Source of the DNA: Folioceros fuciformis
Lineage: Eukaryota
Length of the DNA: 64,000 nucleotides
Assembly: GCA_049999805.1 (NCBI GenBank)
Contig: JBNGIO010006274.1
Coordinates: 81,818-145,817 of the forward strand
Direction: 5' to 3'
A program made the translations under genes and the position numbers. Position 1 is the stretch's first letter; every line of letters starts with the position of its first letter. Below the pieces are notes generated by a model. The model was not told the origin of the DNA and did no database searches. It was given only the letters and a program-made list of their open reading frames with translations. Below are positions 11,917 through 62,664 of the stretch, one piece after another.

Positions 11917-12551
11917 CTACTTGTTCCTTGTACGATACGTCGACTCGTCGATTTCTATCCCCTCTTCCCCCTCCCTTTCCTCTGACGATTTCTCCTTAGT
12001 ACTCAGTCCTCCCTTACGTCCCATATTCTGGTAGCCCTCCCTCCCCAATTGCTCCCTCCTCGAGTGACCCCCTTTGCTTCTCCCTACAATCCACAAACAA
12101 ATGGTCAACATGCCCCGACGGTTTAACGAGCATGCAGGTACGTTATCCAGGCGGAAGTGCTTCAAGTAAACATAAAGAATCTTGGACCTTCTGCCAAGCG
12201 CTCCTGCGTTTCCAACGTTTTGCCGCCAGTTCCGCCCGGGACCACGGTCTCGCCCTTCTCCCTCACCATCCGATCCAGCCTCCTCCTCTCCTTCTCAGGG
12301 AGACTCTTGGTGGGAGGAGCGCACTCGGAGTCCTCCACTCCACTCCGTTTGCCTGGCGGAGCGCGCTCTTCAGGTGCTCGCTTATCTTCCCCTCCTTCCT
12401 CTAGATCTTCGTCCTCCTCCGCGTCCTCTGCCCTTTCCTCTCCTTCCTCCTCCTCCTCCACGTCCTCTTCCTCCTCTCGCTACCGTTCCTCCTCCTCCTC
12501 CTCCTTCTTCCTCGGATTACCTCCCTTGCGCACCACCTTCGTGGTCGACAT
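11917..12551 (-). CDS. Group 1 LEA / Em-like small hydrophilic protein with acidic N-terminal extension; in-frame TAG at 12482-12480 (possible pseudogene)
   Basis: [51 protein letters not shown]...[10 protein letters not shown] is the Em/LEA_5 signature. The intron 12187-12084 (GT..AG) lies at the LAEG|RS position typical of Em genes. Confidence 0.9.
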
Positions 12552-18389: not shown

Positions 18390-19113
18390 AGTAACAATGC
18401 TGGTTTGAGTGCCAAGCAAGGAAGCTCCATGCAGAGGCATGTTTAGTAAAGCAGGTTACTAAGAGTATGAGAAGCATACAACCTTAGGAATAAAGCAGGT
18501 TACTAAGAGTATGAGAAGCATACAACCNNNNNNNNNNACCTTAGGAATAAAGCAGGTTACTAAGAGTATGAGAAGCATACAACCCTAGGAAAAAGGTGTG
18601 GTAGTGAATAATAGCTTAAGGCTTAAGTAAGTAGTTGTTAAGTTAGTAACTTGAGTTTGTGTATAAAAGGGGACCTAAGCTAAGGGCTAAGGTAAGTTCA
18701 GTAGAGTGGAGTTGAGATCAATATCTCCTCAAACCTTGAGGGCACTGGGTGCTTGGGCTATGCCTTGAGAGCATGTGTTGCTTGGGCTATGCCTTGAGAG
18801 CATGTGTTGCTTGGGCTGTAAGAGCACATGAAAGGTGCTGTGAAAGAGCTGTGGGAGGAGGTCAAGAGAAGGGAGAGCTAAACTCCTAGCTTAGACAAAG
18901 ATAGGGAGTTCTCTCTAGCCCTCCACCTCTGTACGTTCTTGTTGATTCGTGATTTGAATAAAGAGCAGCAGCAAGGATGCTGGCTGCGAGTCCTCCTAGA
19001 AGAGGAAAGCGGGCTACTTGGAGGCCTAGTGTTGTGTCCGGTGTTTAAAACTGACTCTTGCTTTGGCTTCTAACTACGTGGTTCTGCCCCACCCCGTTGA
19101 AGGGGGTGTTACT
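18390..19113 (+). repeat. 5' LTR of gypsy element (AGTAACA...TGTTACT)
   Basis: Near-identical to 24037-24642. Contains a TATAAAA box, internal tandem duplications and a 10-N gap. Confidence 0.93.
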
Positions 19114-20875
19114 TGCTCGTTGGTATCAGAGCATAGGTTGAAGCATCCTTGACTAGTACGCTAGTTAACGATAGCAGATCCTGCTGAGCCAAGCAGAGCA
19201 GAGAGGGTACGCCGCAGGAAGGATAAGGCCCCGCTTACCGAAGCCGTTGTGGAAGAGCCACAGGCGGATCCTCAAGTCGTGAGAACGACGGAGGAAGGAA
19301 CTTCGGAGCAAAGGACCGGTACCACCATAGAGGACCAGCTCCAAAAAATCATGAGGAGACTTGATGCTCTAGATCAAGAGATCAAAGGCAAACGTAGGCT
19401 CATTGAAGAAGAGCCAGAAGAAGTGGAGCCAGAGCCTGAGATCAGTGCTCCTAAGAACGCAAAGAAGTTGAGATTGAGTGTTCCTACGCCTAAGAGTTAC
19501 AAAGGTGAGCGTGACGTAGAGAAAATCAAATCTTGGTTTTTCTCTTTGGAAGCATACTTGGAATCATGTGGAGTGCCGCAAGACGAGTACTTGAAGCGCG
19601 TCACGTACTTCTTGGACGAGTATGCTCTTACTTGGTGGAGGACTTACGTAAAGAACGTAAGGCAAGGCAATCATAGAGCAACAATCTTCACATGGGCAGA
19701 CTTCAAGGAAGCGCTGCAACTCCGTTTCCAACCAGCTAATGCTGCGAGTTTGGCGCGAAGGATGCTCGACAATGTCAAGCATACTGGAACTTTGTGGGAG
19801 TATGTGAGTGAATTCAGCTCTATTGTCTTGCAATGTCCTGAGATGCATGAGCAGGACAAACTCCACAAGTTTACTACTGGCCTTAAGAGATGGGCTCAAA
19901 ACAGGATTGCATTGACTAATCCTCATACTTGCAAAAGGCTATGGCAGCAGCAGATGCCATACCGGACGTGTTTGTCTAGGAGGCTCCAATCTTGAGGGGG
20001 AGATATCCTAGATCTCAGGGTAGATCTAGAGGCAGAGGACGAGCCACCACCACTGGGAACAGTGCAACTACTCAGACTACTGCCAGAAGTCGGGGTAGAG
20101 GTGATAACAGGAGTCTTGGAAGACGACGTGCAGCGCCTACCTCTGGTGTATGTTATAGTTGTGGAGAGCAGGGACATTTTGCTAGAAACTGTCCACATGC
20201 ACAAGCTCTCAATTTGAATCTAGTGGCTGCAAATCCACCTGCTCCTAGAGCCAGGATCCAAGAGCTCCCTGAAGAGTCTAGGTGACGCCAAGGGCCACAT
20301 GTTGTGAGGACATGTGGTGAGTCATCAAGTATCAAGGATGACATTATTTCTAAGGAGGGTGGAGACTTGATGTATATTTGTGGCAAGATCAATGGCTTGG
20401 ATATTGAGCTATTGTTAGATTCTGCAGCCACCCATAATTTTGTGACTCCACATAAGGCAAGAGAGCTTGGCCTTGATTGGACTGAAACTTCCACGCCACA
20501 TAGAATCAAGTAAGCTAAAAGAACTCTGCAATTTCTGGGTGAATTGCATGGAGTAAAGCTGCAAGTTGATGCGTGGCAAGGAAGTTTGAGTTTTACAGTC
20601 GTGGAGATGGATAACCATGATATCATCCTAGGTCTGGAGTGGTTGAGATCTAATGAAGTGCAAATGGATGTTAAGTCACGCACTATCGAGATATCCAAAA
20701 AGCACAAAGTGAGTTGTGCTAGCAGTAACCAGAGGCTTGAGAGCGTATCAGTACAGCTGATTACAAACAGAGAGCTCAAGAAAGACCTCAGGAAAAAGAA
20801 GGAGTTATACTTGCTTGTACTCCAAGGACTAGAGGATGGTCTGGAAGAAGATTCCATAGAGGAGAAGGACATCCC

Positions 20876-21168
20876 TGTTGAGTTATCGAGCTCTATATGA
20901 GCTAAACTCATGTGGTGTTAGTTATCCCAGTTGGGTTCATACTAGACTAGTTCTAGTTATTAGTGAACTTAGGATAGTGTAGATTATCCCATATTGAACC
21001 TGGAAGTTGTGTAGCCCTAAATGTACTACTTAAATGGAGACCTCGGACCTCCATAGTAAGACAGTGGTGATGTGTATTGTTTTCATGATTGTGATCACCA
21101 ATACCACCCTCTCTTCTCTCCTCTCCTCTCCTACACTTGCACGTAGATTGGAGTCGATCCTATTGACA
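20876..21168. mobile_element. Solo LTR (293 bp, TG...CA) inserted in gypsy pol
   Basis: Flanked by a perfect 5-bp TSD ATCCC (20871-75 and 21169-73). Removing it restores the reading frame [21 protein letters not shown]. Confidence 0.9.
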
Positions 21169-24036
21169 ATCCCAAAAGAAGTACAAGCTGTACTAGATGA
21201 GTTCAAGGACTTGATGCCAGATGAGTTGCCACCATTTTCGTCTCACAGAGTTGTGGATCATGAAATTGAGTTGAGGCCAGGGAGTACACCTCCTTCAAGA
21301 GCACCATATAGACTGCCACAAGACGAGTTGCAAGAACTCAAACGACAACTATCCAACCTATTGGCAAAGGGATATGTTAGAGTTTCTAAGTCTCCCTTTG
21401 GTGCGCCTGTGTTATTCACGCGCAAAAAGAATGGAGGACTTAGATTGTGTCTGGATTACAGAGCTTTGAACCAGATCACAATCAAGAATGCATATCCTTT
21501 GCCGAGAATGGACGATATGTTTGATAGGTTGAAGGGTGCCAAGTATTTTACCAAGCTAGACCTGATGGCAGGGTACTATCAGGTCAGGATTGCTGAGGGG
21601 CATGAGTACAAAACAGCATGTAGAACAAGGTATGGATCGTTTGAGTTCCTTGTCATGCTATTTGGACTTACTAACGCACCTGCCACATTTCAGACTCTTA
21701 TGAATACTATATTCATAGATCTGGTGGACAAGTGTGTTGTAATCTATCTGGATGACATTTTGATCTATAGTCATATCTTGGAGGAACATGTTGAACACTT
21801 GAGGAAAGTGTTATAGAGACTAAGAGAGAATTCTTTGTTCTTGGCAATCAAGAAGTGTGACTTTGTCAAGACAGAAATTTCATTCTTAGGTTTCATTGTC
21901 TCTGCCAAGGGCATCAAGATGGATCTTGATAAAGTTAAGGCCATTCAAGATTGGCAGCCCCCTCGAAATATTCATGAGGTGCGAAGTTTTATGGGTTTAG
22001 CTTCTGTGTATAGGAAGTTTGTACATATGTTTGCTAAGATAGCAGCTCCCATAACTGACCTCTTGAAGACAGCAAAAGCTTAGAAATGGGATGCTGAGTG
22101 TCAAGCAGCCTTTGAATGCTTGAAGAAGAAGTTGAGCACGACTCCGGTGTTGGGAATGTATGACCCCAAGAGAGATGTGGAAGTGTATTGTGATGCCTCA
22201 GATATGGCTATAGGTGGAGTTTTGATGCAGGACCAAAAGCCGTTAGCTTTTGAGTCAAGGAAGTTGCATCCTTATGAGAGGAAGTATCCCACCTATGAGA
22301 AGGAAATGACTGCTGTCATTCACTGTATGAAGGCTTGGAGACACTATCTCTTGGGTAGGTCTTTTGTGCTGTATACTGATAATATCAGCACGACGTACTT
22401 CTCAAACCAGTTGAAGTTGAATGCAAGGCAAGCTAGATGGCAAGATTTCCTAGCTATATATGACGTGACTCTAAGATATAAACCTGGAAAAGAGAATAAG
22501 GTTGCAGATGCGCTGAGCCGCAAGCAGAGTCAAGACGTGAAAGCAATGGCAACTATGATTGAACCTTTGGATGCTCACAAAGAGATAAAAGAAGCTTATC
22601 TGCAAGATCCTGAAGTGCAGGACTGGATGAATGGGGTGGCAGAGAAAGGAAGCAAGTTCAAACTCAGAGATGGTTTGTTGATATACAAACAGAAGAGAGT
22701 TGTGATCCCTAACTCTGTAGGCTTGAAGAGGAAATTTTTTGCTGAGTGTCATGATGTGCCAAGTGCTGGTCACCGTGGAGGTGATTCAACTTATGAGAAG
22801 TTGAAGAGACTGTTCTATTGGCAAGGAGTGTATCAAGATACATTGGATTATGTCAAGGCATGTGTTGTTTGTCAGTAGGATAAGGTTGAGCAGGCTAAGC
22901 CGAGAGGTTTATTACAGCCCCTACCTATCCCAAGAGGCCCATGGAAAAGTATTTCTATGGACTTCATCATGCCCTTGCCTCCCGGTAATGGATTTACAGC
23001 TATCATGACAGTGGTGGATAGATTCACCAGACAAGCACACTTCATCCCCGCCAAGAAGCGAGTGACCGCTTCTTAGGCAGCAAACTTGTTCAAAAAGTAT
23101 GTGTACAAGTATCATGGCTTGCCCATGCAGATTGTGAGCGATAGAGATCCAAGATTCGCAAGAGAGTTCTGGCAGCACTTGATGAAGAGTTTGAATGTGC
23201 AACTATGCATGAGTACTACATACCATCCAGATACTGATGGATTAACTGAGCGAGTCAACCGAATCCAAGAAGAATATTTGAGGCACTATGTGCAGATTGA
23301 TCAGAGAGATTGGGCTGATCATCTTGATGATGCGGAGTTTTGTTACAATAACACAGTACATAGCTCCCTGGGATGTAGTCCCTTTGAGATGAGTGGAAAT
23401 TCAGCTGTGGATGTGGTATCCATGCTAAATGCTGAAGTTTTCGACACTACCACTGGAGATCCACGCCAATTTGTTGAGCAATTGAAGGTTAGGCATGAGG
23501 TTGCCCAAAAGATATTAGCCAAGGCTCAAGCACGTCAAAAGAGATATGCTGATAAGCACAGGAGAGAAACTGTCTTCAATGTTGGGGATAAAGTTTGGGT
23601 GAAACTGAAGCATTTCACACTACCCCAAGGATTGTCTTTAAAGTTGAGACCAAAGTATGGAGGTCCATATGTTGTCTTGAAGCGCATTGGAGAAGTGGCT
23701 TACAAGTTGGACTTGCCTGATTGGATTTTTGCACACAATGTGTTTCATGTATCTATGTTGAAACCATTTGTGCTAGGCAAAGAGAAAGATGATATAGACA
23801 GGAAGAAGTACAGTATCATGGTGCAGCATGATCAAGGACTACGGGAGATTGAGGAATTCCTTGCATAAGGTAGCGTGGCTACGAGACGTAGAACTCTACC
23901 ACAGTATATGGTAAAGTTGCGTGGGATCTCAACACCAGTTTGGGTAACATTAGAGGATATCCAGAGAGGCTCCTGGATGATTGCTCGTTACACTGGTTAT
24001 CACTGAGGGCAGTGATTCTTTCCTAGTGGGGGAGGA

Positions 24037-24642
24037 AGTAACAATGCTAGTTTGAGTGCCAAGCAAGTAAGCTCCATGCAGAGGCATGTTTAGCAGAGCA
24101 GGTTACTATAAGCATGAGAAGCATGCAACCCTAGGAAACAGGTGTGGTAGTGAATAATAGCTTAAGGCTTAAGTAAGTGCTTAAGTAAGTAGTTGCTAAG
24201 TTAGTGACTTGAGCTTGTGTATAAAAGGGGACCTAGCTAAGGGCTAAGGCAAGTTCAGTACAGTGGAGTTGAGATTAATATTTCCTCAAAGCCTTGAGAG
24301 CACTCGGTGCTTGGGCTATGCCTTGAGACCATGTGTTGCTTGGGCTGTGAGAGCACATGAAAGGTGCTGTGAAGGAGTTGTGGGAGGAGGTCAAGAGAAG
24401 GGAGAGCTAAACTCCTAGCTTAGGCAAAGATGGGGAGTTCTCTCTAGCCCTCCAGCTCTGTATGTTCTTGTTGACTCGTGATTTGAATAAAGAGCAGCAG
24501 CAAGGGTGCTGGCTGCGAGTCCTCCTAGAAGAGGAGGGCGGGCTCCGTGGAGGCCTAGTGCTGTGTCCGGTGTTTAAAACTAACCCTTGCTTTGGCTTCT
24601 AACTGCGTGGTTTTGCCCCACCCCGTTGAAGGGGGTGTTACT
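24037..24642 (+). repeat. 3' LTR of gypsy element
   Basis: Follows the PPT AGTGGGGGAGGA; ends TGTTACT and is followed by the TSD copy AAACA. Confidence 0.93.
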
Positions 24643-36723: not shown

Positions 36724-37815
36724 CTAATCGCTTTGGAAGACCCTCAGGATCCGGAGCAGTGATAAAAATAGGTTGATGATGTCCAGATAGAGTGCCACTG
36801 ATGCCCATACGTACTCGTCGACAGAATAGCGTTTTATCAGCTGATCGGTGTCGTACACGATGTACCCGCAGAATATTAGAGCCCCTAAACCCCCGTATAT
36901 TGTATCTGACAGGGGCCCGAGGGGGAAAAAGATCTGCACAGAATTGCCGAAATTAGGGCCCAAAATTGGCCAGCTAGTGCCCCTCGTATCACATCTGTTT
37001 CATGACAAGAGTACACGGCCAGGGACGTACCTGAATGAAGCCGAACAAAATGAGGACCATAAGGCTCGAGAACAACAGAGGTTCTAGAAAGCTGAAGTCA
37101 TAGCCCCTCTTAGATGCCCAATACGTGTAGCCGGTGAGAGACACGACTATCGTGGTAGTCAATATCAGTGCCTCAAGTACGGCAATCCCTGCAGAGCACA
37201 TGCAGATATCTCCATCAAACTAACCCTGGTTTTAAATGAGACAGCACAACAATGAGGCACACAAAAACAAGGAGCACAGCATACATTCTAACCTGATGTA
37301 AGAGCACAAGTCAGCCCGACAGTCAGGCTGATGCACACGGTGAAAATCCCCAGCAGTACTAGGTTTATGGGATGCCTCTGGTGATAGTAAAAGAGAGGAC
37401 ATAGCGCTGCGACGCAAAGGAGCAGACAAGTCAGTACCAGCAACAAGAAGAAAAAAGAAAACGAGAGGAGTACAAGCGCTACTCAGTAAACAGCAAGCAA
37501 CAAGCAGCGGCAACGGAAGAAGTGCAGAGTTTAGGCCAACCGGAACTTACTGATGAAAGAGGACAATGCTACAGCTAGCAAAACAAAAGGGTTGTTCCGG
37601 AAGAAGATTTGGATTGGCGTGCAAAAGAAGACAACGGCTCCCACAATTACGGTGAGAGCGAGCTGCGTGCTCAGAATCCCATACACCTTCCGAATGAGAC
37701 CCCATCTCAGTTCGTTTTCTCCAGCTGAGATGCCCGGGTAAAGGGCTGACTGCCCAAATCCGCTCTCGAGGTCCCCATAGGTCGGCTTGTAGGAGGAATC
37801 CGCAGATCCATACAT
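36724..37815 (-). CDS. Bax inhibitor-1 family / LIFEGUARD (TMBIM) membrane protein, 4 exons
   Basis: LYPGISAGENELRWGLIRKVYGILSTQL, LEALILTTTIVVSLTGYTYWASKRGYDFSFL and GYIVYDTDQLIKRYSVDEYVWASVALYLDIINLFL. Confidence 0.95.
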
Positions 37816-38328
37816 GATTGCAAGCTTCGCGTCGCCAAGGAATGACGTGGTTCAGGGAAGTCCGATGCCTGCGAGAGTCGTCGATCACAACCTAGCGAAG
37901 AAAAACTGTCTCCCAAGGCCGACCGCGTGCAAGAGTGCGGTGGTGAACCGTCGGCGAGTCGAAGTTTCTACATGGATCAATGGAGCACTTTCTAGGAATC
38001 TCACTCGGTGACGCGTGGTGGCCAGCATATCCGAGCCTTGGTCCTACATGGCGTAGGGTTGCACACGCAAGCAAGCCGTCTGGTCGTGGCTTGCGTGCCG
38101 GGCCGGGGCCCGGCAACCGTGCCTGCCACGCTCCAGTTTGCCGCGTGCCGCGCAGTCCATCGGCTTTTCTCAATCAGTCCCGGCTATTTTCAATCAGTCG
38201 CGGCTGTACGCAATCAGTCGCGGCTGTACTCTCAATCAATCACATTCTGACTTCCGTTCTCAAACGTCCCGACTTCGGCTCCGTCCTTGCTTGCCTCGCG
38301 AGCTTGTGGCAACTTCGGAGCTTGGAGC

Positions 38329-41250: not shown

Positions 41251-42025
41251 GTTGCTGGTTTCAGGAAAGGCAATTATGTACAGTAATCATGTAGGCTAGA
41301 TTATTTATGTCGATAGTGAGCTCTGCTGCTGATGGACGGACCCAAGTCGTTCAGGCTGGTGCTCGGCGTGTGTACGTTGTCTAGTTTCTGATCCAACTCA
41401 AACGCAATCCTTGGGCATATCCTACGTCCTTAATCATGTATGTTATCATTTATACAAATCAATTTGTCAAGACTTGCAAATGTGCTTAGCAACCAATCAG
41501 TTGTCCAGGAAATTGACTAGACACATAAATCCTTTGCAATGCAATTAAGCAAGCAGCCAAATCATCCTTTGCAATNNNNNNNNNNGCCAAATCATCCTTT
41601 GCAATGCAATTAAGCAAGCAGCCAAATCATCCAAATTGATGCAATGCAATTAAGCAAGCAGCCAAATCATCCAAATTGACACAGTATCATCATATGCGAA
41701 AGTTTGGATTTGCAGTGGGTGGCAGGTCTGGATTTGCAGTGGGTGGCAAACTAGCCGGTAGTCTAGTGGTGTCCTAAACCTTCACCTTGCCTTCATCAGC
41801 ACCTATAGATCATAAGCCTGGATTTCTGGTTTTGGATGTCAATGGATCTAAGTGCCAAGCTAACTGCAAACTTGAAAACGCCCAACTAATAAGCTAGCTT
41901 CAAACTAGAAGATGCCCAACTAATAAGCTAGCTTCAAACTAGAAGATGCCCAACTAGTAAGCTAGCTGCAAACTAGAAGACGCCCAACTAAGTAAGCTAG
42001 CTGCAAACTAGAAGATGCCCAACTA

Positions 42026-45000
42026 CAGTCAAACCCCTCTAATTGGAACCCCTATAAATGGAACACCCGAGCTTACTCCCTTGAATGTGCTACATGCTAA
42101 ATGGGAAACCCCTTCTAATTTGTAATTGGGAACATGTCTCGCAAACATTCAATGCAAGTACACCTCTGTAAAAGGAAAAATACATATTAAAAAATTTTGA
42201 AGAAATCGTCTTATCGAGATTAAATCATGAGTTATTGAGATTATGTCAGGTTAAAGGCTATCGAGATTATATCATAAAACATAGACAGTCATCGAGATTG
42301 GGCCTATATATGTAGTAGTTCTGTACACTATGCTATGATCATATTGTTCCTAGTACATAAGTTGTTTCGTTGTACAAGTTGTCTTATGGTGTTCTAAGTT
42401 GTGTTATGGTGTTGTAAGTTGTTGTCTTGCTATGAGATATTTTGTATGTGTTTCTTAGCCATTCTCTTTAACGTGTAGGAATAATGCCGCCAAAGCTGCC
42501 ACACAAGCATGCTACCCTAACAAAGCAACAAAAGAAAGAGGTTTGCGAATATTATGTCCAACACTCTTGCACACTTAAGGAGTTTGACTAGATGGACAAC
42601 AGAGAAGTTTTCAATAGCGGCTTCTAAAAGTGCATTGTCTAGGATTGTGAATGACAAAGACAAATAGTTGGACCTTGCCATTGGTCCAACAACTAATCTT
42701 GCAGGAATGAGGGATAGAGTAGTCGTATGCCCACAGATTGACCACGCAATGCACGTTTGGGCTCTTGCAATCCAACCTCAAGGTGCCACAATTTCAAATG
42801 ACTTGCTTCGTGAGTGCATCAAGTTGTATCGTGACTATCAAGCAATGATTATGCTGGTAAAAGGTTGGACATCATTTGTGAGTCCTCATACCATACGCAA
42901 TTATTGGAGGCATAGCACTTTGGATGCAAAATTGCGTGCACAAGATTCTCGGTTCCGCGAGTCTTTAGATCTAAACAGCGCACCATATGATTCAGAGGAT
43001 CAATTGTCGCATCCTCAAAATTACTCTAATTCGTTGGAAACGCAGTAAAAGAGCTACAACAGTCCATACGAAGCTTAGCATTATTAACATCTGAGGATAT
43101 GACAGGAATTGCTGATGTTGGATATCCAACGATGACAGCTGAAGAGTATATGAACTTTGAGGAGGATGAAAAATTGAAGACTACGTATATTCCTATAGAG
43201 GACGAAATATGGCAAGCATTAATCCCTCCACCTGTCAATGAGGAGGGTGAGGAGAATGATACAGCATCAGTGGAGACCATAATGCCAAGACCGTGTACGA
43301 CAAAGGATGTTGTAGATAATGCAGTTAGAAGTGGTAGCAGTCCACTTGAGTTATGTAACCTTAGGTATAGATAGCTTAGCAAAGTAACTGTTGGATTAGT
43401 TAGCGGAGTGGTGACCACAATCGTGCACATCACCCGTGTGGAGGTCATTCAGATGAGATTCGAAGAGAAACAACAGCTTGCAAAGGAGGCGCGCCCTTGA
43501 ATCAGCAGATCTCGCCCACAAATTCAGGCGGGATATCTCCAAAATTTCAGGACACTACCACAAATTCAGGCGGTGCGCCCTTCCAATTTCAGGCTGCGAC
43601 TGCTGATTTGGGAGGCGCATCTGCAATTAGGGGAGTCGCGCCTCCTCTGCTGGAGAGCACGCCAATCAAAGAACTGATCGCGCGCTCTGATCCGGCTCCA
43701 ATTCCCAGCGCGACTGTCAATTTTAGAGGCGCCTGTCCAGATCCTGCTTGGGCGTCCCCTAATTTCCAGCGTGCGCCTGTTCATCAGCGAAGGGCGCTTG
43801 CTTCAAGCGATGCTCGTCCATATCTAAAGGAAGGGCATGCTCTGAATTCAGGTGTTCTTTCTGATCACAGCAGCGCGCCAGTGGTGGTAGGAGTAACCAC
43901 CTCACGCACGGGAGGAGCGCCCCAAGCACCGGCCCTGGCGAAGAAAAACCTCGTCAACTTCTTGCTATGCGGTGCGTGCCCCCGGCATCCACTTTAAAAA
44001 TTCAAGCACCTTCTACAACGGTGGCAGTTCATATTAAGGAGGAACCAGTTTCTCCCCCGTCCCCCTTTGAGACCCTCCAAGCTGCTTATAAGGATTATAA
44101 GGACCACGAGACCCAAGCACAAGCTTCATCTTTTGAGAAACGTTCTCACCATTATCTGAAACTTTGGGAGTCTATCACTAACTTAGTCAACGAAGTTAAA
44201 ACTGTTTGTCGTATGGAGTCCAGTTCTGATTAGGGATCTCAAGTACCTATATTTATATATATCCATAAATTATCTTGTGCTCTTTATATTGATGTTTATC
44301 CTAAGCCTTGTGTTATAACACTTTGCTTGCTTAAATATCTATTCAAGACACAAATAACATTATGCCAGGAACGAGTACCCCCATGTCGATGACTACTCCC
44401 TCAATTGCACTAGTGATAAATGTGATGAACGTATCAACTGATTTCAAAGAAAAAGACCTTTTTAACGGTACAAAGTATGAAGTCTGGTCTCGACGAATGA
44501 AAACAGCCTTGAATACATGAGATTTGCTTTCTATCGTGAAAGGAACTTCCCCCAAGCCTCTGGCACCTCAATCGGCTGTCGAAGCTTGGTTAAAACTTGA
44601 TTGTCAAGCCATGCATATGTTAATATCTAGTCTTGACGAGACTACGTTACACCATACCGATGGTGCAACTACAGTAGCAGAAGCGTGGAAGCAGATAAAT
44701 GATATTTATCAATCCACCAATGTGATGACCCTGGTCACTGTGCGCCAAGAGCTCTATACTCTTCATATGCAACCAGGCGATAGTATTGCCCACCATGTGA
44801 GTCGTTTTCGTTACCTCCGGGCACAATTGGCTGCACTAGGCACTACTATGTTTGAGTTTGATGCTATTGTACAATTGCTGGCTAGTCTTCCGGCTAGCTA
44901 TCAATCTTTTGTCTCTTCACACAACCAGTCGGTCCGTAACTCTCAGCGAGCATTGGCGGCTGGTGGTCAATCGACACTTAATGTGTCCAAGATTGCTGGG

Positions 45001-48000
45001 GCGCTCCTACAAGAGGAGGATTCTCGCTATAATACTAGCACATCTAAGCATGGTGATGAGCGAGTGATGTTCGTGACACGAGGGCGGTCTCAACATCAGC
45101 CTAAGAGAAGAGACAATCCCACAAAGCGGATGACTTCTAACAGTCACCCAAAATCTGCTTCTTCTGCCTCTACCTCCAAGACCCAGAAGCGACAAGGCAC
45201 TTGTAACTGGTCTCAAATTCCGGGCCATTGGGAGAGGGAGTGCAGCAAGAAGCAAGCTGGTGAGGCTAAGAGGGAGCCCAAGTCCACTAATACGGCTGTT
45301 CTTCCTAAGGCCAAGACTCAGACTAAACCAGAGATTGCTCTTACAGTGTGCCTCGTTGCATCGGCTCTAAAGACATCGTGGCTCATTGACTCCGCAGCTA
45401 CTGCTCATATTTGCAATTCCAAGCATATGTTTACTACCTATGCGGCGTCACCTGATCCTCTCCGGTATGTCCTATTAGGAGATGACTCTGGGCTTGCCAT
45501 ACACGGCATATGGAATGTGACCTTCACATTAGAAGACAAATCCACCCTTCTGCTGACGAATGTACTTCATGTTCCGCAAATGGCCAAGAACCTTATCTCC
45601 GTATGACACCTTATGCACGATGGTCTTTATAAACTAGAGTTTGGCAAAGAGAACTGTCTACTCTATCGATCCTCCAAGCCCCATCAAGTGGTAGCACGAG
45701 GACATCTCCAGAGTGATCTCTATATATTCTCCGGCACCCTTGTGTATTCTTCTAGTGCTGTCGCTGTGGATACTACCAAGGATGCACCACAAGCTAGGCA
45801 CCAGTCCTTCGGGCCAGCCTTCTTATGGCACTGTAGGCTTTGGCATCTTAACTCTGCCAAGTTACTTGTCATGTCCATGCAGGATCTCTATCGTGACAAG
45901 CTTCCTGCCTTGGCCAAGACTCCACCATTCTATGAAGCCTATGTGTTGGCCAAGCAGCGAAGTGCACCTTACTCTAGTCTTCCTGCTCACAGGGCGTCTC
46001 AACCCTTGGAAATAGTTCACATTGATTTGTGTGGACCTCTTCCTGTCACTTTTTTAGGCGGAGCCCACCATTTTATGACAATCGTAGATGATTATTCTCA
46101 TTATTCTTTTGTGTATCCGCTCCGTCTTAAGAGTGACTCCTTTGGTGTGTTCCAACCCTTTGTCTCGATGGCCGAGCTGCACACTAGGTGTAAGCTGCGG
46201 TGCATTCGTTCTGACAATGCAGGGGAACTCAACAATTGGCTCTTCCAAGCATTCTGTGAAGAACGAGGGATTACCCGGCAATTCTCGGTTCCCTACACTT
46301 CTGCTCAAAATGGCGTTGCGGAGAAGGCCAATGGCAATCTTCTTGCCATGGCCAGGGCTATGCTAGCCCAGTCTCATCTGCCGAAGTCTTTTGGGCTGAG
46401 GCCATTTCCACCGCTACTTATATAAAGAACCGGCTTCTTACACAGGCAGTAGCTAGCCGTACTCCTTTTGAATGCTGGTTTGGTTACAAGCCACTTATTT
46501 CCCATCTTCGGGTTTTTGGCTCTCTCGCCTATGCCTATGTCCCTTCCCCACTACGCGACAAGCTTTCTTCTTGAGCGTGGAAACTTGTGTTTGTTGGCTA
46601 CGGGGAGGCCCGCAAGGCTTATAAGCTAGTTGATCCTCACTCTCATACTCCAGTCTATGCACGAATGGTTACTTTTGATGAAGGTTATGTTCTGTCTCAT
46701 GGACCCATTCTTGATGGTGACAAGGATAACCGCTCTCCGCCAAGTAGTCCTCGTCCTCTTGACGATGTCCATGTCTCCTTTGACCTCCCTTCTTCCTCAT
46801 TTCCTAATGGTTCTATACTATTGGATCCTTCATCACTAGCAACTCCGGCTTCTCCGGTTTCTACTCGAGGGGGGGAAGATGAAGATGAAGGCTCCATGGG
46901 TACTACTCAAGATATGGATCTTCCTCATGATATACCTACAGCAGATGCTCACATTTCGTCTCAGAGGACAGATGCTAGTACACCTAAGCGAAAGTATCCT
47001 TCACATCAGAGACAGCCAAGACATTTGTGGGGTGAAAATCCTTTTGATCTAGAATTTAATCAAGTTGGTTATATTGGGGTCTATCCCACTGTGTATTCTC
47101 TTGCTACTAGCTCTCCTCTTTCAGAGGGAGATCCTCTCACACTTAGAGAAGCATATTCAAGACCAGACGCTGATAAGTGGAAATTAGCTATTGACGATGA
47201 ATACAACTCTCTAGTCAAAAATAACACTTGGCAATTAGTGGATCTTCCTGCAGGTAGGATTACAGTCAAGTGTAAGTGGGTACTAAAAACCAAATTTCAA
47301 GAGGTGGAACCCCGGATAAGATACAAAGCAAGGTTAGTGGCCATGGGTTAAAGTCAGCAAGAGGGAGTAGACTATCAGGGTGACCAGGGTTACTCTCCTG
47401 TTGTCAAAGCAGCATCTATTAGGATGCTTCTGGCTCTTTGTGTTGAACTCAACCTTACCATCTATCAATTAGATGTCTGCACAGCCTTTTTGTATGGTCA
47501 TTTAGAAGAAGAAATCTATATGGATCAGCCTGAGGACTATGAGGATAAGAAACATCCTTATAAGGTGTGTAAACTTCTTCGTACTATATATGGGCTCAAA
47601 CAAAGCCTACGACTATGGTACAAGCAAATTGATACATACCTCAAGAAGATTGGCTTTGTACAATGTGAGTCAGATACCAATCTCTATGTACTACGAAAGG
47701 ACAGTTCAATTGTATTAATAGCACTTGGTCATTCTAGGCAACAATGTGGAGCTGGTTAACCAAATTAAGGCAGATCTCAGTAAAGAGTTTGAAATGAAAG
47801 ACCTTGGTCAAGTAAAGTATATTCTTGGAATGCATGTACATAAAGATAGATCCACTGGAGCTATCTATCTTCATCAGGGGAGATATGTAGCATGGATGTT
47901 GAAGAAGTTTAATCTAGAAAATGCACGAGCAGCAGCCACTCTAGGTGCCGTTGGTGTCAAGCTGTCTTCGTCATTCTGTCCGCAGTCTGAAGAGGATAAG

Positions 48001-49675
48001 AAGGAAATGGAGAGTGTGCCATATCGAATGGCAGTAGGAACACTCATGTTTCTTAGCAATTGGACCAGACTAGACATATCTAACACTATGAATGCAGTTG
48101 CTCAATTCTCTGAGAATCCAGGAAGAGACCACTGGGTTGCAGTCAAAAGAATAATGCGATACCTAAAGGGTAGGAACACTCATGTTTCTTAGCAATCGGC
48201 CCATACCAAACATATCTAACACTGTGAATGCAGTTGCTCAATTCTCTGAGAATCCAAGAAGAGACCACTGGGTTGTAGTCAAAAGAATAATGCGATACCT
48301 AAAGGGTACTCCTAATTATGGTCTCTGCTACAAACCCAGCGGGAAGAAGCATTTATAACTCAGTTGTTACGTAGACGCTGATTGGGCTTCTAATGCTGAT
48401 ACCCGCAAAAGTCTTTCGGCATATTGTTTCCTTGCTGGTTCCACAGTGATAAATTGGTCCTGTAGGAAACAAGCCTCTATTTCTCTATCTTCTACTGAGT
48501 CAGAGTATAAAGCATTGACAGAAGCTACGAAGGAGGCTGAGTGGGAAAGGAAATTATGCAAGGATTTGGGAATGCATCAGAAGGGACCCACTATTCTTAA
48601 TAGTGATAGTATGTCAGCCATTGCCTTGGTGGCTAATCTTGTGTTTCATGCCCGCACTAAGCACATCGAGATACAACATCATTATGTTAGGGATGCTGCT
48701 GAGAGGGGCTTAGTAAAGATACAGTATGTGCCTACAGATCTTAACATGGCTGATGTCTTGACAAAGTCACTTCCTAAGTTCAGACATTGTTTTCATAGGA
48801 AAGGACTTGGTCTAGTAGACTGTAGTAGTTTTGGCTCTCAGAAAAATTTGAAGACGTGGTGAAGATATCCCTTCTGACCCCATCAAGTGCAAGGATAACT
48901 GAAACTGGAGTATTACTTCTGTTCTGGTCATGACTAGTGCGCTACTATAACGGTTGTCGTCTGCGGCAGACTTCTTGACAGTGTTAGCGACTGCAAGATT
49001 TGACAGCCGAGCTGAAGTAGATAGCTTACAGTAACAGACTTTCACAAGTACTGATCTCTATAAGAGCTCTCATAACTCTAACGTGACTGAGAGGGAGAGT
49101 TAGAAGTGGTAGCAGTCCACTTGAGTTATGTAACCTTAGGTATAGATAGTTTAGCAAAGTAACTGTTGGGTTAGTTAGCTAGGCTAATGAAAGGACACAC
49201 CCTTTAGGATGGTACCTATAAAAAGACAATTAAGTGTACTTCTAAATCATTCTTATTTTAAACTTTTGTGTAGAAGACACACTTTCGCATGTAGTCTTCC
49301 AACTAATGCTATGAGGATAACGAAGATGTTTTTGGAAGAGATGCCACATAACACTCTTTTGATGCTTTGAAGTTGCATTCTCAGTTCGAAAAACATATTG
49401 CTAGTCATTGGATGAAAGCAACTCAACATCAATCAAGGATTGATGATTATTTTAACCCAACAAACTAGAATTAGCTTGACAAGTATGTAGTATGAGGGAG
49501 CATTTTGGATTTTTTGGAAGCTTTTAAGCTCTTTCGAATTTTTGATTTAAAAGATTTTATGACTTTTTAAATATTTTTGTGTTCAAAAAAAGATGAAAAT
49601 GCCTAAATGCGAACCCCTCTAAAATGGGACAAGTTTTGCTACTCCCAATTGTTCCCAATTAGAGGGGTCTGACTG
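42026..49675 (+). mobile_element. pogo/Tigger-like Tc1-mariner DNA transposon, internally deleted, interrupted by copia
   Basis: TIRs CAGTCAAACCCCTCTAATTGGAAC and (rc) CAGTCAGACCCCTCTAATTGGGAAC, with a TA TSD on both sides. Transposase relic: MPPKLPHKHATLTKQQKKEVC (HTH), IDHAMHVWA..GATISNDLLRE (CENP-B-like), KGWTSFVSPHTIRNYWRH, MTAEEYMNFE, C-terminus QSRIDDYF. Confidence 0.88.
43323..49304 (+). mobile_element. Ty1/copia LTR retrotransposon, decayed, 5' LTR truncated
   Basis: Domain order is gag (from ~44362), protease WLIDSAATAHIC, integrase (VHIDLCGP, IRSDNAGE, QNGVAEK), RT (YKARLVA, YGLKQS), RNase H (YVDADWA, RTKHIEIQHHYVRD). PPT at 49089-97; 3' LTR 49098-49304; 5' LTR remnant 43323-43404; perfect TSD AATGC. 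Confidence 0.95.
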
Positions 49676-51563
49676 TAGTAAGCTAGCTGCAAACTAGAAG
49701 ACACCCAACTAGTAAGCTAGTTGCAAACTAGAAGACGCCCAACTAGTAAGCTAGGTGGAAACTAGAAGACGCCCAACTAGTAAGCTAGTTGGAAACTAGA
49801 AGACGCCCAACTATTATGCTACTTGCAAACTAGAAGACACACAACTAGTAAGAACAACGAGAAGCATCACTAGAAAGACTGCAAGATTGCAAGGTCAGGT
49901 ACCTGTTGAACCATGGCAATATGAGGTGGAGACAAGGGGATTTGAGCCAGCAATGGAGTAAGGCATTCCATGCACTTGTGTGTTTATATGCTAGGCTAAG
50001 AGAGGTGTCAACCTAATTTCGTGGTTTATAGCAAGGACAGTTGGTATGCCAACTAGCCTTGTCACCACAATAATGTTGGTGGGCTTGCTTGAGCTAAGAA
50101 ATCAACAAGTTCCTTCATGGTAGCTATGTCTGAGTTCATTGATGGCAGCTGTGTCTAAGAGCCAAAGGCATCTTGTCAGTTTAGCATTACAAAAAGCCTT
50201 TTAGGCAATTGAGATTATGAGCCGAGATTATGAGCCGTCAAAGACATTGTAGGCGTATAGCAATGAGTGCGCTGAAAAGGTCACCCTGGTAATCACTATA
50301 TGCCCGCTCATTCAAGTCTGCACAGTATTTGTCAGCTCATCGATACTATTTATTGTAGAGTAATATAGTAATAAATTAATATACATACATACCTATACAT
50401 GGTATGTTATCATTTACACAAATCAAGATTTGTCACCAGCCTTTTCCAAGAACTTGCAAATGTGCTTAGCAACCAATCAATAGCTCAACAGATGTTCAGC
50501 TCAAGAGATTGATAAGACAAGATCAGTCCTTTATAATGCCATCAAGCAAGCAGCGAAATCATCTAGCTTAACAAAGTGGCACCATGTGTGCAGGTCTAGA
50601 TTTGTAGGTGGTGGCAAACTAGCCGGTATTCCAATGGTGTGCTGGACCTTCACCTTGCCTTCATCAGTGGCACCATGTGTGCATGTCTGGATTTGTAGCT
50701 GGTGGCAAACTAACCGGCATTCCAGTGGTGTGCTGGACCTTCACCTTGCCTTCATAAGCACTTGTCAGGGATCATAAGCCTGGATTTGTGGTTTCGGATG
50801 TCAGGTGGATCTAGGTGCCAAGCTAGCAGGTGCCAAGCTAGCTGCAAACGAGAAGACTCCCAACTGGTAAGAACAACAAGAAGCATCACCGGACATACTG
50901 TAAGGTCAGGTACCTGTTGAGTCATGGCAGTATGAGGAGGAGACAAGAGGATATGAGCTAGCAATGGAGCAAAGCATTCCATGCACTTGTGTGTTTATAT
51001 GCTGGACTAAGAAAGGTGTTAGCCTAATTTTGTGGTTATGGTAGGGACAATTGGTATGCCAACTAGCCTTGCCACCACAATAATGTTGGTGGGCTTACTT
51101 GCGCTAAGAAATCAATAGGTTCATTCATGGTAGTTGTGTCTAAGAGCCAAAGGCATCTTGCCAGTTTAGCATTACAAAAAGCCTTTTAAGCAACTGAGAT
51201 TATGAGCCGTCAAAGGCATTGTAGGCATGTAGCAATGAGTGTGCTGAAAGGGTCACCCACGTAGTCACTATATGCTTGCTCATTCATGTGCGGACAGTAT
51301 TTGTCAACTCATTGATTGGTATTTACTATATAATAATATAATAATATACATACATACCCATACATTGTATATATGTATATATATATACAAGCCATCATGG
51401 CTTGCCAATAGCCTCTTTTTGAGGACTCACACACTCATTAGCCTTGGTTTATGTGAGGCTTTAATCACGTAGAGTGCTAGTATCATAGCACTCATAAAGT
51501 TACAAACACGCACTCATGGAGGTACAAACATGGGCTTGGTGTGGCTATAGGCACTCACCCAAT

Positions 51564-57262: not shown

Positions 57263-59109
57263 ATGAGCATGTCTGGCAGTGGAGACATCGTAGAGTGGGA
57301 GTGGAGCAGCGATGATCAGCACTGGATTGCCTACAGTGCCTCCTGCAGCTCCCTGATAGAGGAAGCGTATGCCGCGGGCTTCTCCAGTGTGCCGCTCTGT
57401 CTCTCGTCCAATCCATCCACCTCCCACACCATCATCTTTGAGGGCCTCCCGCAGCGACAGGTCTCCTTCTTCCCTTTGCCCTTGCGCCCACCTCTTGCTC
57501 CGCTGCTGGCTTCGCCTTCCGTTGGCTGGCTTGTCGGACCTGCTTGTTTGTCGGCTGGGCTCAGGTGAACGTGCGGACGCTGCGGTCGAGGCCCGTAAGG
57601 CGCCAGGTTCTGGGCGGTGGCCCTGTCGGGCAGCGGGTGTCGTGGGAGTGGTGGGAGGTTGAGAGAGGGACGTGGACGCCTTACGCTGCAGCTGCCGCCT
57701 CGCAGATAGAGGCAGCCTGGGCTGAGTGCAGCAGCAGCAGGGCGTGCAACCGAGCCAACGGGCCCTCTGGGCTGCTCTTGTGCATCAGGAATCACTGGTA
57801 CACTATCGAGTTTGAAACTGACGCTCGGCAGTGCAACAATTCCACCATGTTTTGTAGAGGAGTGAGGAGGAGGGCAGTTTCTCAGCCAGCTGCGCCTGCG
57901 GCTTCCCGAGCTTGCAGGTTTACCCTGCCTTGGACCCGATCACGGACCGCGCGAGATCCCGCTGCCCAGGGCCAGCAGGAGGCGCAAGCTACTCAGGAAA
58001 GCCATCCCATTCCCAGTCTAATTCCCATTACCGGTCTAGTTCCCGTTACAGTGCCCGCTCCCGTGCATCTGGGCCAGGTGAATAGTCCATCCCTTAACGA
58101 AGAGTACTTCATTCCCTTCCCGGATTGCAATGAATCCGACGACTGCCCTATCTGCATCTGCAGCCTCACTGCATGGGAGGCAGTGAAGCTTTCCAAGTGC
58201 AGGCACGCGTACCACAGGGCATGCATCCAGCAGTGGTTTAGGAGCAAGCCCACTTGTCCTGAGTGTGCCACCCCTCATGGGGTCATATTGGGTACTCAGC
58301 CAGCAGGAGAGATGAAAGTGCGATATGTTACTCGAGAAAGCGAGGGTGGTCTTTCGGGGTATCCTCATACTGACGTCATCGAGATCAGCTATTACTTTCC
58401 CAGTGGAATTCAGGTATGCATCCTACCCGGAAATAGGGCTTGTACTCTGACGCAGGTCCCTACTTTGTGTGTGGAGTGGAGTGGAGGTCTTCATATTGTG
58501 TTGTGGTCCCGTGGTGGAGGCAGACAGATGAACACCCCAACCCAGGCCGGGCATACACGGGCACCAGGAGAGTTGCGTACTTGCCCAAGAACAAAGACGG
58601 GGAGGATATCTTGGACCTACTCAAAACAGCATGGCAGCGAAAGCTACTCTTTACAGTAGGAACATCTGTGACCACTGGACGACAAAACCAAGTAATGTAT
58701 GTAGCTGTGTCAACTCTTTTGCTTAAACGCCAAAAACACAGCCAACCTCATGTGACGAGACGGAGCTCCTCAATGATACGTTGCTGTGCCTCTGTGCCTT
58801 TGTGTATCTCCTTTGTGTACTGACTGGCTGTCTCCTCTTTAGCTGGGCTGGGATCCATCACAAAACAAACAAACAAGGAGGGGCCGAGTATTACGGCTAT
58901 GTGAGTCACACACTCGGGGACTTTCCGCCCCTGGTGACCTAAACATGCTGTCAGACTGGGCTTCTGTCGTCCTCCTTTTTCGTTAGGAGGAACAGAACCC
59001 GTACGTAGTTGGAACTCACACCATCTGCTGTCGATGTTTGCAGCCTGACGACACTTACTTCGCTCGAGTCCGAAGTGAGCTGGCAGCAGTGGGCGTAACC
59101 TCGTTGTGA
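57263..59109 (+). CDS. DTX: Deltex-family E3 ubiquitin ligase (WWE-WWE-RING-H2-DTC), 5 exons
   Basis: Exons 57263-57460, 57565-58413, 58524-58696, 58843-58900 and 59044-59109 splice in frame through GT-AG introns. Two WWE repeats (VEWEWSSD..WIAY..IEEAY; VSWEWWE..WTPY..IEAAW), RING CPIC..CRHAYHRAC..CPEC, and DTC motifs GTQPAGEM, FPSGIQ.DEHPNPG, RVAYLP, LLFTVGTSVTTG, VIWAGIHHKT, YGYPDDTYFARVRSELAAVGV. Confidence 0.93.
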
Positions 59110-60540: not shown

Positions 60541-62157
60541 TCAGGTGGAGATGATCCGCACGTCTGGCACATGGACAGGGAAGTTGTGTATGCAGGCAGC
60601 CCACGGGCCAGTTTTGGGAGGCTGAATGGTCCGAAGGGCCCGCCATACCGAACTGTTGCACTTGAAGCCACTACCGAAGGCGATCTGCCACACCCTGTCC
60701 CCGCGCCGAACTCGTCCCTTGGCCTCCGTGTAGGCCAGCTCGTACCAGATGGAGGAGGAGGACGTGTTACCGAACCTGTACAGCGTCATCCGGGAGGCCT
60801 CCACGTGCTCCTTGGACAGCTGCAAGTTCTTCTCCAGCTCATCAATAACCGCCCGGCCGCCCGCGTGAATGCAGAAATGCTCGAAAGCGAGCTTGAAGTC
60901 CGGAATGTAAGGCTTGAGCTTGGCATTGAAGAGCTTCCTGGCAACCAGAGTCGCGAAGAAGAGGATCTGCTCCGAGAGCGGGAGCACTGGCGGTCCTAGA
61001 GTAGTGATGTTGGTCTTGAGCGCATCGCCGGCGATGGCCATAAGATCCTTGGACAGCGACACCCCGAGCTTTCCCTCCTCGTCCTCCTCCTGGTACACGC
61101 AGCGGAAGCACTTGGTATCGGCGCCCTTGTGCGTCCTCACCGTGTGCACCAGCTGGTACTTCGATCTCCGTCGGTCGGAGGCCTTGTTGGAGAGCAGAAT
61201 TGCAACGCCCCCAACCCGGAACAAGCAGTTGGGAATGAGCATGGAGCGGCGGTTCCCGAAGTACCAGTTCTGTGTGATGTTCTCCGTGCTCACCACAATG
61301 GCGTAGGTGCTCCTGTGCACTTGCAGCAAATCCTTGGCCAGATCCACAGAAATGACGTTGGCGCTGCACCCCATTCCCCCCAGATTGAAGCTTCGAATGT
61401 TGCCACGCATCCGATACTTGTTGACGATCATGGCCGAGAGCGAAGGTGTGGGATTGAAAAGGCTGCAATTCACCACCAGCACCCCCACGTCCTTGGGCGT
61501 CACCTTAGTCTGCGCGAAGAGCTGGTCCAGGGCCCCGAACATGACTGTCTCCGCCTCGGCGCGCGCCTCCGCCATATTGATGGTGACCGGCACGTTGTGC
61601 AGCCCCGGCGGCAGGTACGTCTCCTCGCTCAGCCCCGACCGCTCCAGGATCTTGCGCTGGAACTCCAGATTCTTGGGGTCGAAGAGACCCACCATCTCCG
61701 ATCGCTTGATGAAGAGGTTGAAGGGCACCTTGAGCTCGTCCGGCGGCAGGTAGCAGGCGTAGTCGACGTTGTACACGGGCCGCGCCCGCGACATGAAGTA
61801 CACCGTGCCCCCGAACACTAGCAATGCGGAGCAGCCCAGCACGCTCACCAAGTTGTATTGCAGCTTCACCCACAAACTCCACATCTCCTCCCTCCCAACC
61901 CGCGTCATCTCCAGCCCCACCCCCAGCACCAGCGGCACCACCAGCAGCGTCACCAGATGCGTGATCAGGTAGTGGTACCCCAATTTCACATATTTGAGAT
62001 TCACGGACTGCAGAAAATCCGGCAGCCGAGCCCTCCGCGTCCCGCCGCCGACACCGCCGCCATGGTGCCCATTTTCAATCCACGCATTCCCGTTCCCGTT
62101 CACCACCTCCGCCGTCTCCCTCTCCTTGTCTTTCTCCTGCACCCGCTCCTCCTCCAT
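60541..62157 (-). CDS. KCS: 3-ketoacyl-CoA synthase (FAE1-type very-long-chain fatty acid elongase), single exon, 538 aa
   Basis: [34 protein letters not shown], catalytic [43 protein letters not shown] and [12 protein letters not shown]. Confidence 0.98.
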
Positions 62158-62664
62158 CTCCGATGCTCCTCTTCACAACCCCCACCTCCTTCCTCGAATC
62201 CGCCCTGCTCTGCTCCACCTTTACCTTTCCTGCCCGGCTCTCAGCTCGGCTGAACTCAGCTCAGCTCAGCTCAGGGCTGGGAGCTCGGCTCCAGAAATGC
62301 ACAGGCACTAACTCCCGCAGCGAGCACCGCTGAGCTGCAGGCAGTTGAGCCCGTCAACAAGCCGGCTGACTGGAGAGAGGTGGTGGGAGCCCTGGCCTCA
62401 TCGACCTAGGTTTTCCTCACTGCCCAGTGCCAGCGCAGCAAGCCTGCCACGAACAGACTGCGATTCCCCTTCACTGCAGCACCTGCAGCATAGCCTGCCA
62501 CGATTCCAGTCGCCCGGGCAGCCTCCATTCGTCGTCACATGCTCTCCCTGCCTTCCTTCCCATGATTCGCGCTCATAACACCCGTGGCGGGGTGGTATAA
62601 CGCTCTCCTACTTTCCCCTCTACGTACGCCGCGCCGCACGGCAACCCCCCGGGCTGCGCCTGTT

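Follow-up and report, generated by a model that had tools for sequence, protein, structure and literature searches.

AG...CT long terminal repeat ends in a Ty1/copia and a Ty3/gypsy retrotransposon from one window of the Folioceros fuciformis genome

Long terminal repeats (LTRs) usually start in TG and finish in CA. How, then, did two retrotransposons of unrelated superfamilies, lying within 25 kb of each other in a plant genome, come to begin with AG and end with CT? The two elements, one Ty1/copia and one Ty3/gypsy, lie in a stretch of 64,000 nucleotides from Folioceros fuciformis (GenBank assembly GCA_049999805.1, contig JBNGIO010006274.1, positions 81,818 to 145,817 of the forward strand), hereafter the window, whose own numbering is used throughout. 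A sequence-only reading of the window had described a copia element with AG...CT ends and a perfect AATGC target-site duplication, its 3' LTR starting with AGTT directly after the polypurine tract, the same terminal swap in a gypsy element, and an ordinary TG...CA solo LTR at 20876, and it had proposed a host-driven convergence in end recognition. All of these structural observations held up under the analyses below, which also show three things overlooked in that reading, namely a truncated 5' LTR, the lack of a primer-binding site and a broken coding region; the proposed cause is weighed against other explanations afterward. The copia element is delimited as follows.

43318-43322, forward strand: left copy of the target-site duplication, AATGC (from the sequence and from the joint in contigs without the insertion)
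43323-49304, forward strand: Ty1/copia element, 5,982 bp (from LTR comparison, Pfam domains and contigs without the insertion)
43323-43404, forward strand: remnant of the copia 5' LTR, first 82 bp only, beginning AGTTAGAAG
49089-49097, forward strand: polypurine tract GAGAGGGAG, abutting the 3' LTR
49098-49304, forward strand: copia 3' LTR, 207 bp, AGTTAGAAG...CTTCCAACT, containing TATAAAAAG at 49217-49225
49305-49309, forward strand: right copy of the target-site duplication, AATGC (same evidence as the left copy)

At the left junction (43322/43323) GATAATGC is followed by AGTTAGAAG, and at the right junction (49304/49305) CTTCCAACT is followed by AATGC; the resulting 5-bp duplication is perfect, as expected of Ty1/copia. 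The 3' LTR opens with AGTT at 49098, with no gap after the purine run, and identity between the two LTR copies begins exactly at the A of AGTT. The 5' remnant matches 49098-49179 at 80 of 82 positions, and these 82 bp are the element's sole end-to-end direct repeat. Eight of nine positions match in the terminal inverted repeat (AGTTAGAAG versus AGTTGGAAG). The element's ends, xGTTAGA...CCAACx, fit the published copia consensus TGTTRRN...YAACA (PMC3601003) except at the outermost base pair, which has changed from T:A to A:T at each LTR end, and all three observable termini carry the change. In other respects the element resembles canonical Ty1/copia elements, with which it shares GTTAGA (positions 2-7), CCAAC, a purine tract abutting the LTR, a 5-bp duplication and the order of domains; it differs from them in the outermost base pair at both ends.

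The boundaries were also read independently of the LTRs. Contigs of four public runs (X1-X4, of which X4 gave only 4 short pieces) were aligned to 42800-49800, and several joined 43316 directly to 49304, skipping 5987 bases, with six letters that fit either side (three contigs in X1, three in X2 and two in X3); two more variant joints occurred at the same site. One 345-nt contig runs through 43173-43316 and resumes at 49304-49515, either part carrying 13-14 mismatched letters. The copia element is nested in a multi-copy repeat (flank depth 495-681 in X1), and the joint contigs are diverged paralogues of this target repeat that lack the insertion ("empty sites"). These empty sites fix the copia boundaries independently. 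The 5987 skipped bases equal the 5982 of the element plus a duplication of 5, and the joint is ambiguous by six letters because the 5-bp AATGC is accompanied by a chance T at both 43317 and 49304.

The interior of the element encodes the following.

43405-43940 (right limit approximate), forward strand: low-copy, GC-rich filler, recognized by run depth, in place of the distal 5' LTR, of the primer-binding site and of a portion of the leader
44362-45606, forward strand: gag and protease, with a putative ATG at 44362 and an in-frame stop at 44518-44520 (Retrotran_gag_2, Pol_BBD)
45607-46574, forward strand: integrase (zinc-binding region, DDE core and SH3-like domain), with one frameshift (gag_pre-integrs, rve, SH3_retrovirus)
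46575-48192, forward strand: SH3 tail, linker and reverse transcriptase, interrupted by an in-frame stop (47349-47351) and by a frameshift near 47722-47759 (RVT_2)
48034-48305, forward strand: 136-bp tandem duplication, two copies 94% alike, which shifts the frame between reverse transcriptase and RNase H
48359-48862, forward strand: C-terminal open reading frame (ORF), presumed copia RNase H by position

Pfam domains occur in the order Retrotran_gag_2 (E = 1.1e-28), Pol_BBD (8.3e-19), gag_pre-integrs (1.9e-05, whose 24.8 bits lie below the 28.4-bit Pfam cut-off), rve (3.5e-08), SH3_retrovirus (4.3e-08 and 6.9e-08, across two ORF pieces) and RVT_2 (across three ORF pieces, best 2.4e-29), placing integrase ahead of reverse transcriptase. 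This order of gag, protease, integrase and reverse transcriptase identifies 43323-49304 as a Ty1/copia element; for RNase H no domain match backs the placement at the end of this order. The ORF at 48359-48862 matched no Pfam family at E<=0.01, and we take it to be the copia RNase H from its motifs and its position. A protein atlas search with the gag-protease region returned generic plant and fungal copia clusters only. The integrase frame is preceded by an in-frame stop (45604-45606), and its alignment positions D140, D203 and E239 are occupied, presumably forming the DDE triad. In-frame stops of the coding region end at 44520, 45606, 46574 and 47351, and at least three frameshifts occur; the copy is old, defective and dead.

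The 5' end is damaged as well. The 3' LTR's distal 125 bp have no counterpart at the 5' end or elsewhere in the window, and a motif search of the window placed no initiator-tRNA primer-binding site inside the copia element (of five matches in the window, the four other than that at 19121 carry two mismatches, the level expected by chance). The filler has a depth of ~6-10 in X1, a single-copy level, versus 77-488 over gag-pol, and one exact 478-nt contig covers 43436-43913 of it; it has no Pfam match, and a protein atlas search with the filler ORF found nothing credible (recognition low, 896). This copy thus lost its distal 5' LTR, together with the primer-binding site and a stretch of the leader, in a deletion accompanied by low-copy filler. 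The 207-bp 3' LTR represents the copia family. That family has been amplified, given the gag-pol depth of 77-488 in X1 against ~6 for unique filler, and the 3' LTR is likewise multi-copy, a variant at 49187 turning up in both X1 (13 contigs) and X2 (19 contigs). RNA folding around the purine tract was no better than in shuffled sequences (z = 0.47). Upstream of gag lies a 122-codon open frame (43865-44233) without a Pfam match, in a part of the leader common to other family members (~86% identity in X3); either noise or an additional ORF ahead of gag could explain it.

The second AG...CT element lies upstream and carries a nested insertion of a third LTR family.

18390-24642, forward strand: Ty3/gypsy element, with LTRs at 18390-19113 and 24037-24642 (Pfam domains)
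19121-19132, forward strand: gypsy initiator-tRNA primer-binding site TGGTATCAGAGC, 7 bases after the end of the 5' LTR (spacer TGCTCGT)
24028-24036, forward strand: gypsy purine tract GGGGGAGGA, abutting the 3' LTR
20876-21168, forward strand: solo LTR with canonical ends, TGTTGAG...TTGACA, lying inside the gypsy element
20871-20875 and 21169-21173, forward strand: perfect duplication ATCCC flanking the solo LTR

The gypsy element has Pfam matches to Retrotrans_gag, Ty3_capsid, zf-CCHC, RVP_2, RVT_1, RT_RNaseH, Integrase_H2C2 and SH3_Tf2-1, a domain order differing from that of the copia element. Aligned end to end, both of its LTRs read AGTAACA...TGTTACT, with a perfect 7-bp inverted repeat. 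They differ from each other at 31 of 593 aligned columns, and all four termini are still identical. The flanks, AAACG and AAACA, agree at four of five positions. Three LTR families were found in the window, two with AG...CT ends and one with TG...CA, and because the TG...CA solo LTR is nested in the gypsy copy, its family must have integrated after that copy arrived.

Two features of the gypsy copy stand apart from its termini. The 7-base gap between LTR and primer-binding site exceeds the 0-5 bases assumed by common tools; if such a gap is typical of the family, its linear cDNA would bear extra end bases needing trimming before joining. The 5' LTR also holds extra tandem copies of a 44-bp unit (18447-18584) that are absent from the 3' LTR, their number being uncertain at a gap of 10 Ns (18528-18537) within the units.

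How common are such ends among copia elements? We aligned the window integrase with 17 relatives, took the best 80 of 554 confirmed metagenome matches (30-44% identity) and compared those loci of at least 4.5 kb with themselves, obtaining 52 repeat rows and boundaries for 31 pairs. Five pairs whose 3' LTR ran into the contig end were dropped (L010, L029, L051, L067 and L070; all but L051 start with TG), and in the remaining 26 a 5-bp duplication was sought up to 6 bases away from the BLAST boundaries. TG...CA ends with an exact duplication were found in 15 pairs and with a 4/5 duplication in one (L023, read by eye), while TA...CA ends were found in two (L057 and L058, apparently two assemblies of a single element); eight pairs were not readable (L007, L008, L018, L027, L034, L046, L049 and the outer pair of L077). 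In four of the 15 exact cases (L012, L033, L075, L079) another offset fitted as well or nearly so, and the reading with the inverted repeat was taken. None of the 18 readable pairs had AG...CT ends, which are therefore rare among copia relatives. The same scan, at offset 0, returned AGTTAGA...TCCAACT (5/5) and AGTAACA...TGTTACT (4/5) for the two window elements. Some control loci come within one base of the window copia ends: L037 starts with TGTTAGA, and L038 and L056 end with CAACA, identical save for the outermost base. The sampled loci closest to the window integrase (L008, L034, L024 and L038, 39-41% identity) also start with TG.

Four control loci (L038, L049, L077, L079) carry GGTTATGGGCC right after the 5' LTR in place of TGGTATCAGAGC. 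We take this to be a primer site of the half-tRNA-Met type, presumably the one reported in REXdb for Osser, Bryco and Gymco-II. All of these loci with readable ends have TG...CA.

The copia integrase itself is distant from everything sampled. A HMMER search of 1.84 billion representatives gave identities of at most 43%, and word searches gave six matches among longer proteins (at most 37% identity) and two among proteins of near length (at most 39%); viral contigs yielded no match, with either the single protein or the alignment as query. In a tree of 24 integrase segments, the window copy branches off by itself, without a supported sister and with a branch length of 1.63; the tree therefore says nothing on how the AG...CT ends arose.

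The closest published parallel is found in insects. In Drosophila, AGT/AnT ends are attributed to the errantiviruses and TG/CA ends to BEL, Copia and Metavirus-type elements (Nefedova & Kim, PMC5408687), and the Zam clade ends are given as AGTTAYRK...TAAYT (Benachenhou et al., PMC3601003). As in the gypsy, ZAM and Idefix subgroups of Drosophila errantiviruses, AGT...ACT replaces TGT...ACA in the window, and both the copia and the gypsy element fit the errantivirus-type definition AGT...AnT. The likeness stops at the ends: errantiviruses are Ty3/gypsy elements of insect hosts with an env gene, whereas the window elements have a plant host, one of them is copia, and their duplications are 5 bp. 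Errantivirus duplications are 4 bp and site-specific. The ORF table shows no env-like ORF in the copia element, which, with its copia domain order, lies outside the genus Errantivirus.

Known plant exceptions to TG...CA resemble the window elements in other ways. Seven non-TGCA types were described in 50 plant genomes, the first base always being T (Ou & Jiang, 10.1101/137141), and nine non-canonical types in lotus, where the first nucleotide was never mutated, the last was A or T, and TGCT was commonest (PMC9804982). These elements (Tos17 TG..GA, TARE1 TA..CA, lotus TGCT/TGGA/TACA/TACT and others) are mostly copia, make 5-bp duplications and allow a 3'-terminal T; their LTRs are short, ~270-330 bp, against 207 bp in the window copia. 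They begin with T, however, whereas the window elements begin with A and, through a symmetric change, keep the short inverted repeat; the window termini consequently fall outside the catalogued plant types. AA...CA copia and terminal-repeat retrotransposon in miniature (TRIM) subfamilies in Rosaceae (Yin et al., PMC5659011) show that a plant LTR starting with A is not unheard of, but those ends are non-palindromic and retain CA-3', while the window elements retain G at the second base and end with CT. We found no report of AG...CT LTR ends for plants or copia, nor for liverworts, in a literature that we covered incompletely. The sequence-only reading had allowed that such ends might already be the documented norm for both lineages; AGT/AnT is indeed the errantivirus norm (PMC5408687, PMC3601003), but not that of copia or plants in the literature searched. 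As far as these sources reach, then, what is new here is the presence of errantivirus-like ends in a plant, in copia as well as gypsy, AGT/AnT being known mainly from insect gypsy-like viruses.

The AG...CT state was inherited and does not stem from mutation after insertion, since seven observable termini in two elements share the change at an LTR divergence of 2.4-5.2%. The 5-bp duplications indicate, in turn, that integrase joined AG...CT ends of the parental elements. An artefact, whether from wrong boundaries, misassembly or later mutation of a TG...CA element, might be suspected from the degenerate copia copy with its truncated 5' LTR and possible 6-bp match and from the 4/5 gypsy duplication, but it is highly improbable given that the empty sites fix the insertion to the base, that LTR identity begins exactly at the A, and that independent mutation at each of seven termini is not credible at this divergence.

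We favor the explanation that each family's integrase and the ends it joins evolved together, a terminal T coming to be accepted, and that the two families arrived at AGT...ACT in parallel, a reading to which we give a probability of roughly 0.6. Under it, integrase would have made the usual 5-bp staggered cut and joined ends finishing in ...AACT-3' rather than ...AACA-3', each family's enzyme having adapted to the changed terminus. A plausible path would have TG...CT, of all non-canonical types in plants the most frequent and one abundant in lotus, as its intermediate and would lead to the symmetric AGT...ACT state also used by insect errantiviruses. Copia and gypsy could have taken this path separately, with no need of a host factor. 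Integrase change that compensates for att-site mutations is cited in the discussion of the lotus study (PMC9804982).

Several points weigh against this explanation. One copy of each family was examined, and the copia ...CT end is seen once, the 5' LTR being truncated. With a T at 43317 as well as at 49304, the final T of the LTR could in a formal sense be counted toward a 6-bp duplication; the AGTT/AACT inverted repeat and the 5-bp norm argue that it probably belongs to the LTR. The control covers copia only, from metagenome contigs, and eight of its 26 pairs are unreadable. The integrase shares at most 43% identity with anything sampled and sits on a long, unsupported branch, so that a link between its changes and the ends is conjectural. 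In two plant surveys the first base is always T (10.1101/137141, PMC9804982). Finally, two such families within 25 kb are a striking coincidence that leaves room for a lineage-level cause; two in 64 kb exceed what would be expected at seed-plant rarity, which keeps an explanation at that level in play. In its general form, such an explanation would hold that a substantial share of LTR families of both superfamilies in the host lineage use ...ACT-3' ends, through lineage-wide pressure or as old bryophyte-specific clades, a proposition we regard as rather unlikely.

One specific version makes AG...CT an old and widespread bryophyte trait, ancestral to the copia and gypsy clades concerned and hidden by motif-bound tools. 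Such tools may have hidden it: REXdb predicted 13,566 plant elements with 5'TG/3'CA as a criterion (PMC6317226), under which AG...CT elements would be excluded, and LTR_retriever seeks TG..CA and then seven listed motifs (10.1101/137141). The strong divergence of the copia integrase (at most 43% identity, end branch 1.63) and the multi-copy state of its family are also consistent with an old clade. Yet the closest sampled relatives, at 39-41% identity, start with TG, and no paper reporting AG...CT ends turned up within our incomplete coverage of the literature; we consider this version unlikely.

The host-driven convergence proposed in the sequence-only reading, in which a cofactor, end processing or a defence against TG...CA ends pushed unrelated elements to the same swap, draws on the identical AGT...ACT change in two superfamilies so close together, on its lack among the 18 readable control copia pairs, and on the T-initial rule of the plant surveys. 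The nested solo LTR speaks against it, as its TG...CA ends and perfect duplication place a canonical family still integrating after the gypsy copy was in place. Drosophila, moreover, holds errantivirus AGT ends beside TG/CA families (PMC5408687), such that mixed states need no host switch. With a sample of two elements and no candidate host factor visible, a host-driven origin seems quite unlikely, and parallel co-evolution of each integrase with its own ends remains our preferred explanation.

Host genes in the window resemble those of a land plant and lie on both sides of the copia element.

3868-10248, reverse strand: pieces of a Mon2-like host gene
11920-12479, reverse strand: LEA_5 (Em-like) host gene
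36727-37851, reverse strand: Bax-inhibitor-1 host gene
57442-58659, forward strand: host gene for a WWE-RING protein, with a weak Deltex C-terminal match
60544-62172, reverse strand: intron-less FAE1-type 3-ketoacyl-CoA synthase gene (462 bits)

Named matches of best identity to the ketoacyl-CoA synthase come from liverworts, at 80% for Calypogeia fissa, 79% for Marchantia polymorpha and 78% for Riccia fluitans, with another match at 82%; going by these matches, the host would most likely be a liverwort that the protein database does not contain. DUF4283 was also found among the window's Pfam domains. The repeat around the copia element (41719-42029, 49676-51370) has a run depth of ~500-900, and its ORFs are without a Pfam match. 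Arrays of a 34-bp tandem unit, 86-94% alike, flank the element (41857-42025 and from 49676), and a local duplication of ~0.55 kb (49818-50405 versus 50837-51370) is 80% alike. Against the window (42800-49800), X3 contigs show C>T at 151 places and G>A at 166, compared to A>G at 61 and T>C at 36. X1 and X2, from the same sample, do not show this bias, for which a library of converted DNA or a group of repeat copies with deaminated bases could be responsible.

The claim of AG...CT ends rests on two elements in one window and is a lead, not an established rule for the lineage. Finders that require TG/CA or a T-initial motif list would skip AG...CT families, which could distort repeat annotation in bryophytes, and if such ends prove widespread, repeat content, insertion dating and assembly-quality indices would be biased. 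In the DNA that retroviral-type integrases join, no feature is more conserved than the terminal CA-3', and the window shows a natural, symmetric CT-3' in its place, extending the insect errantivirus exception to another kingdom and another superfamily. The copia and gypsy pair also provides two natural systems in which to look for the integrase residues that recognize the last base.

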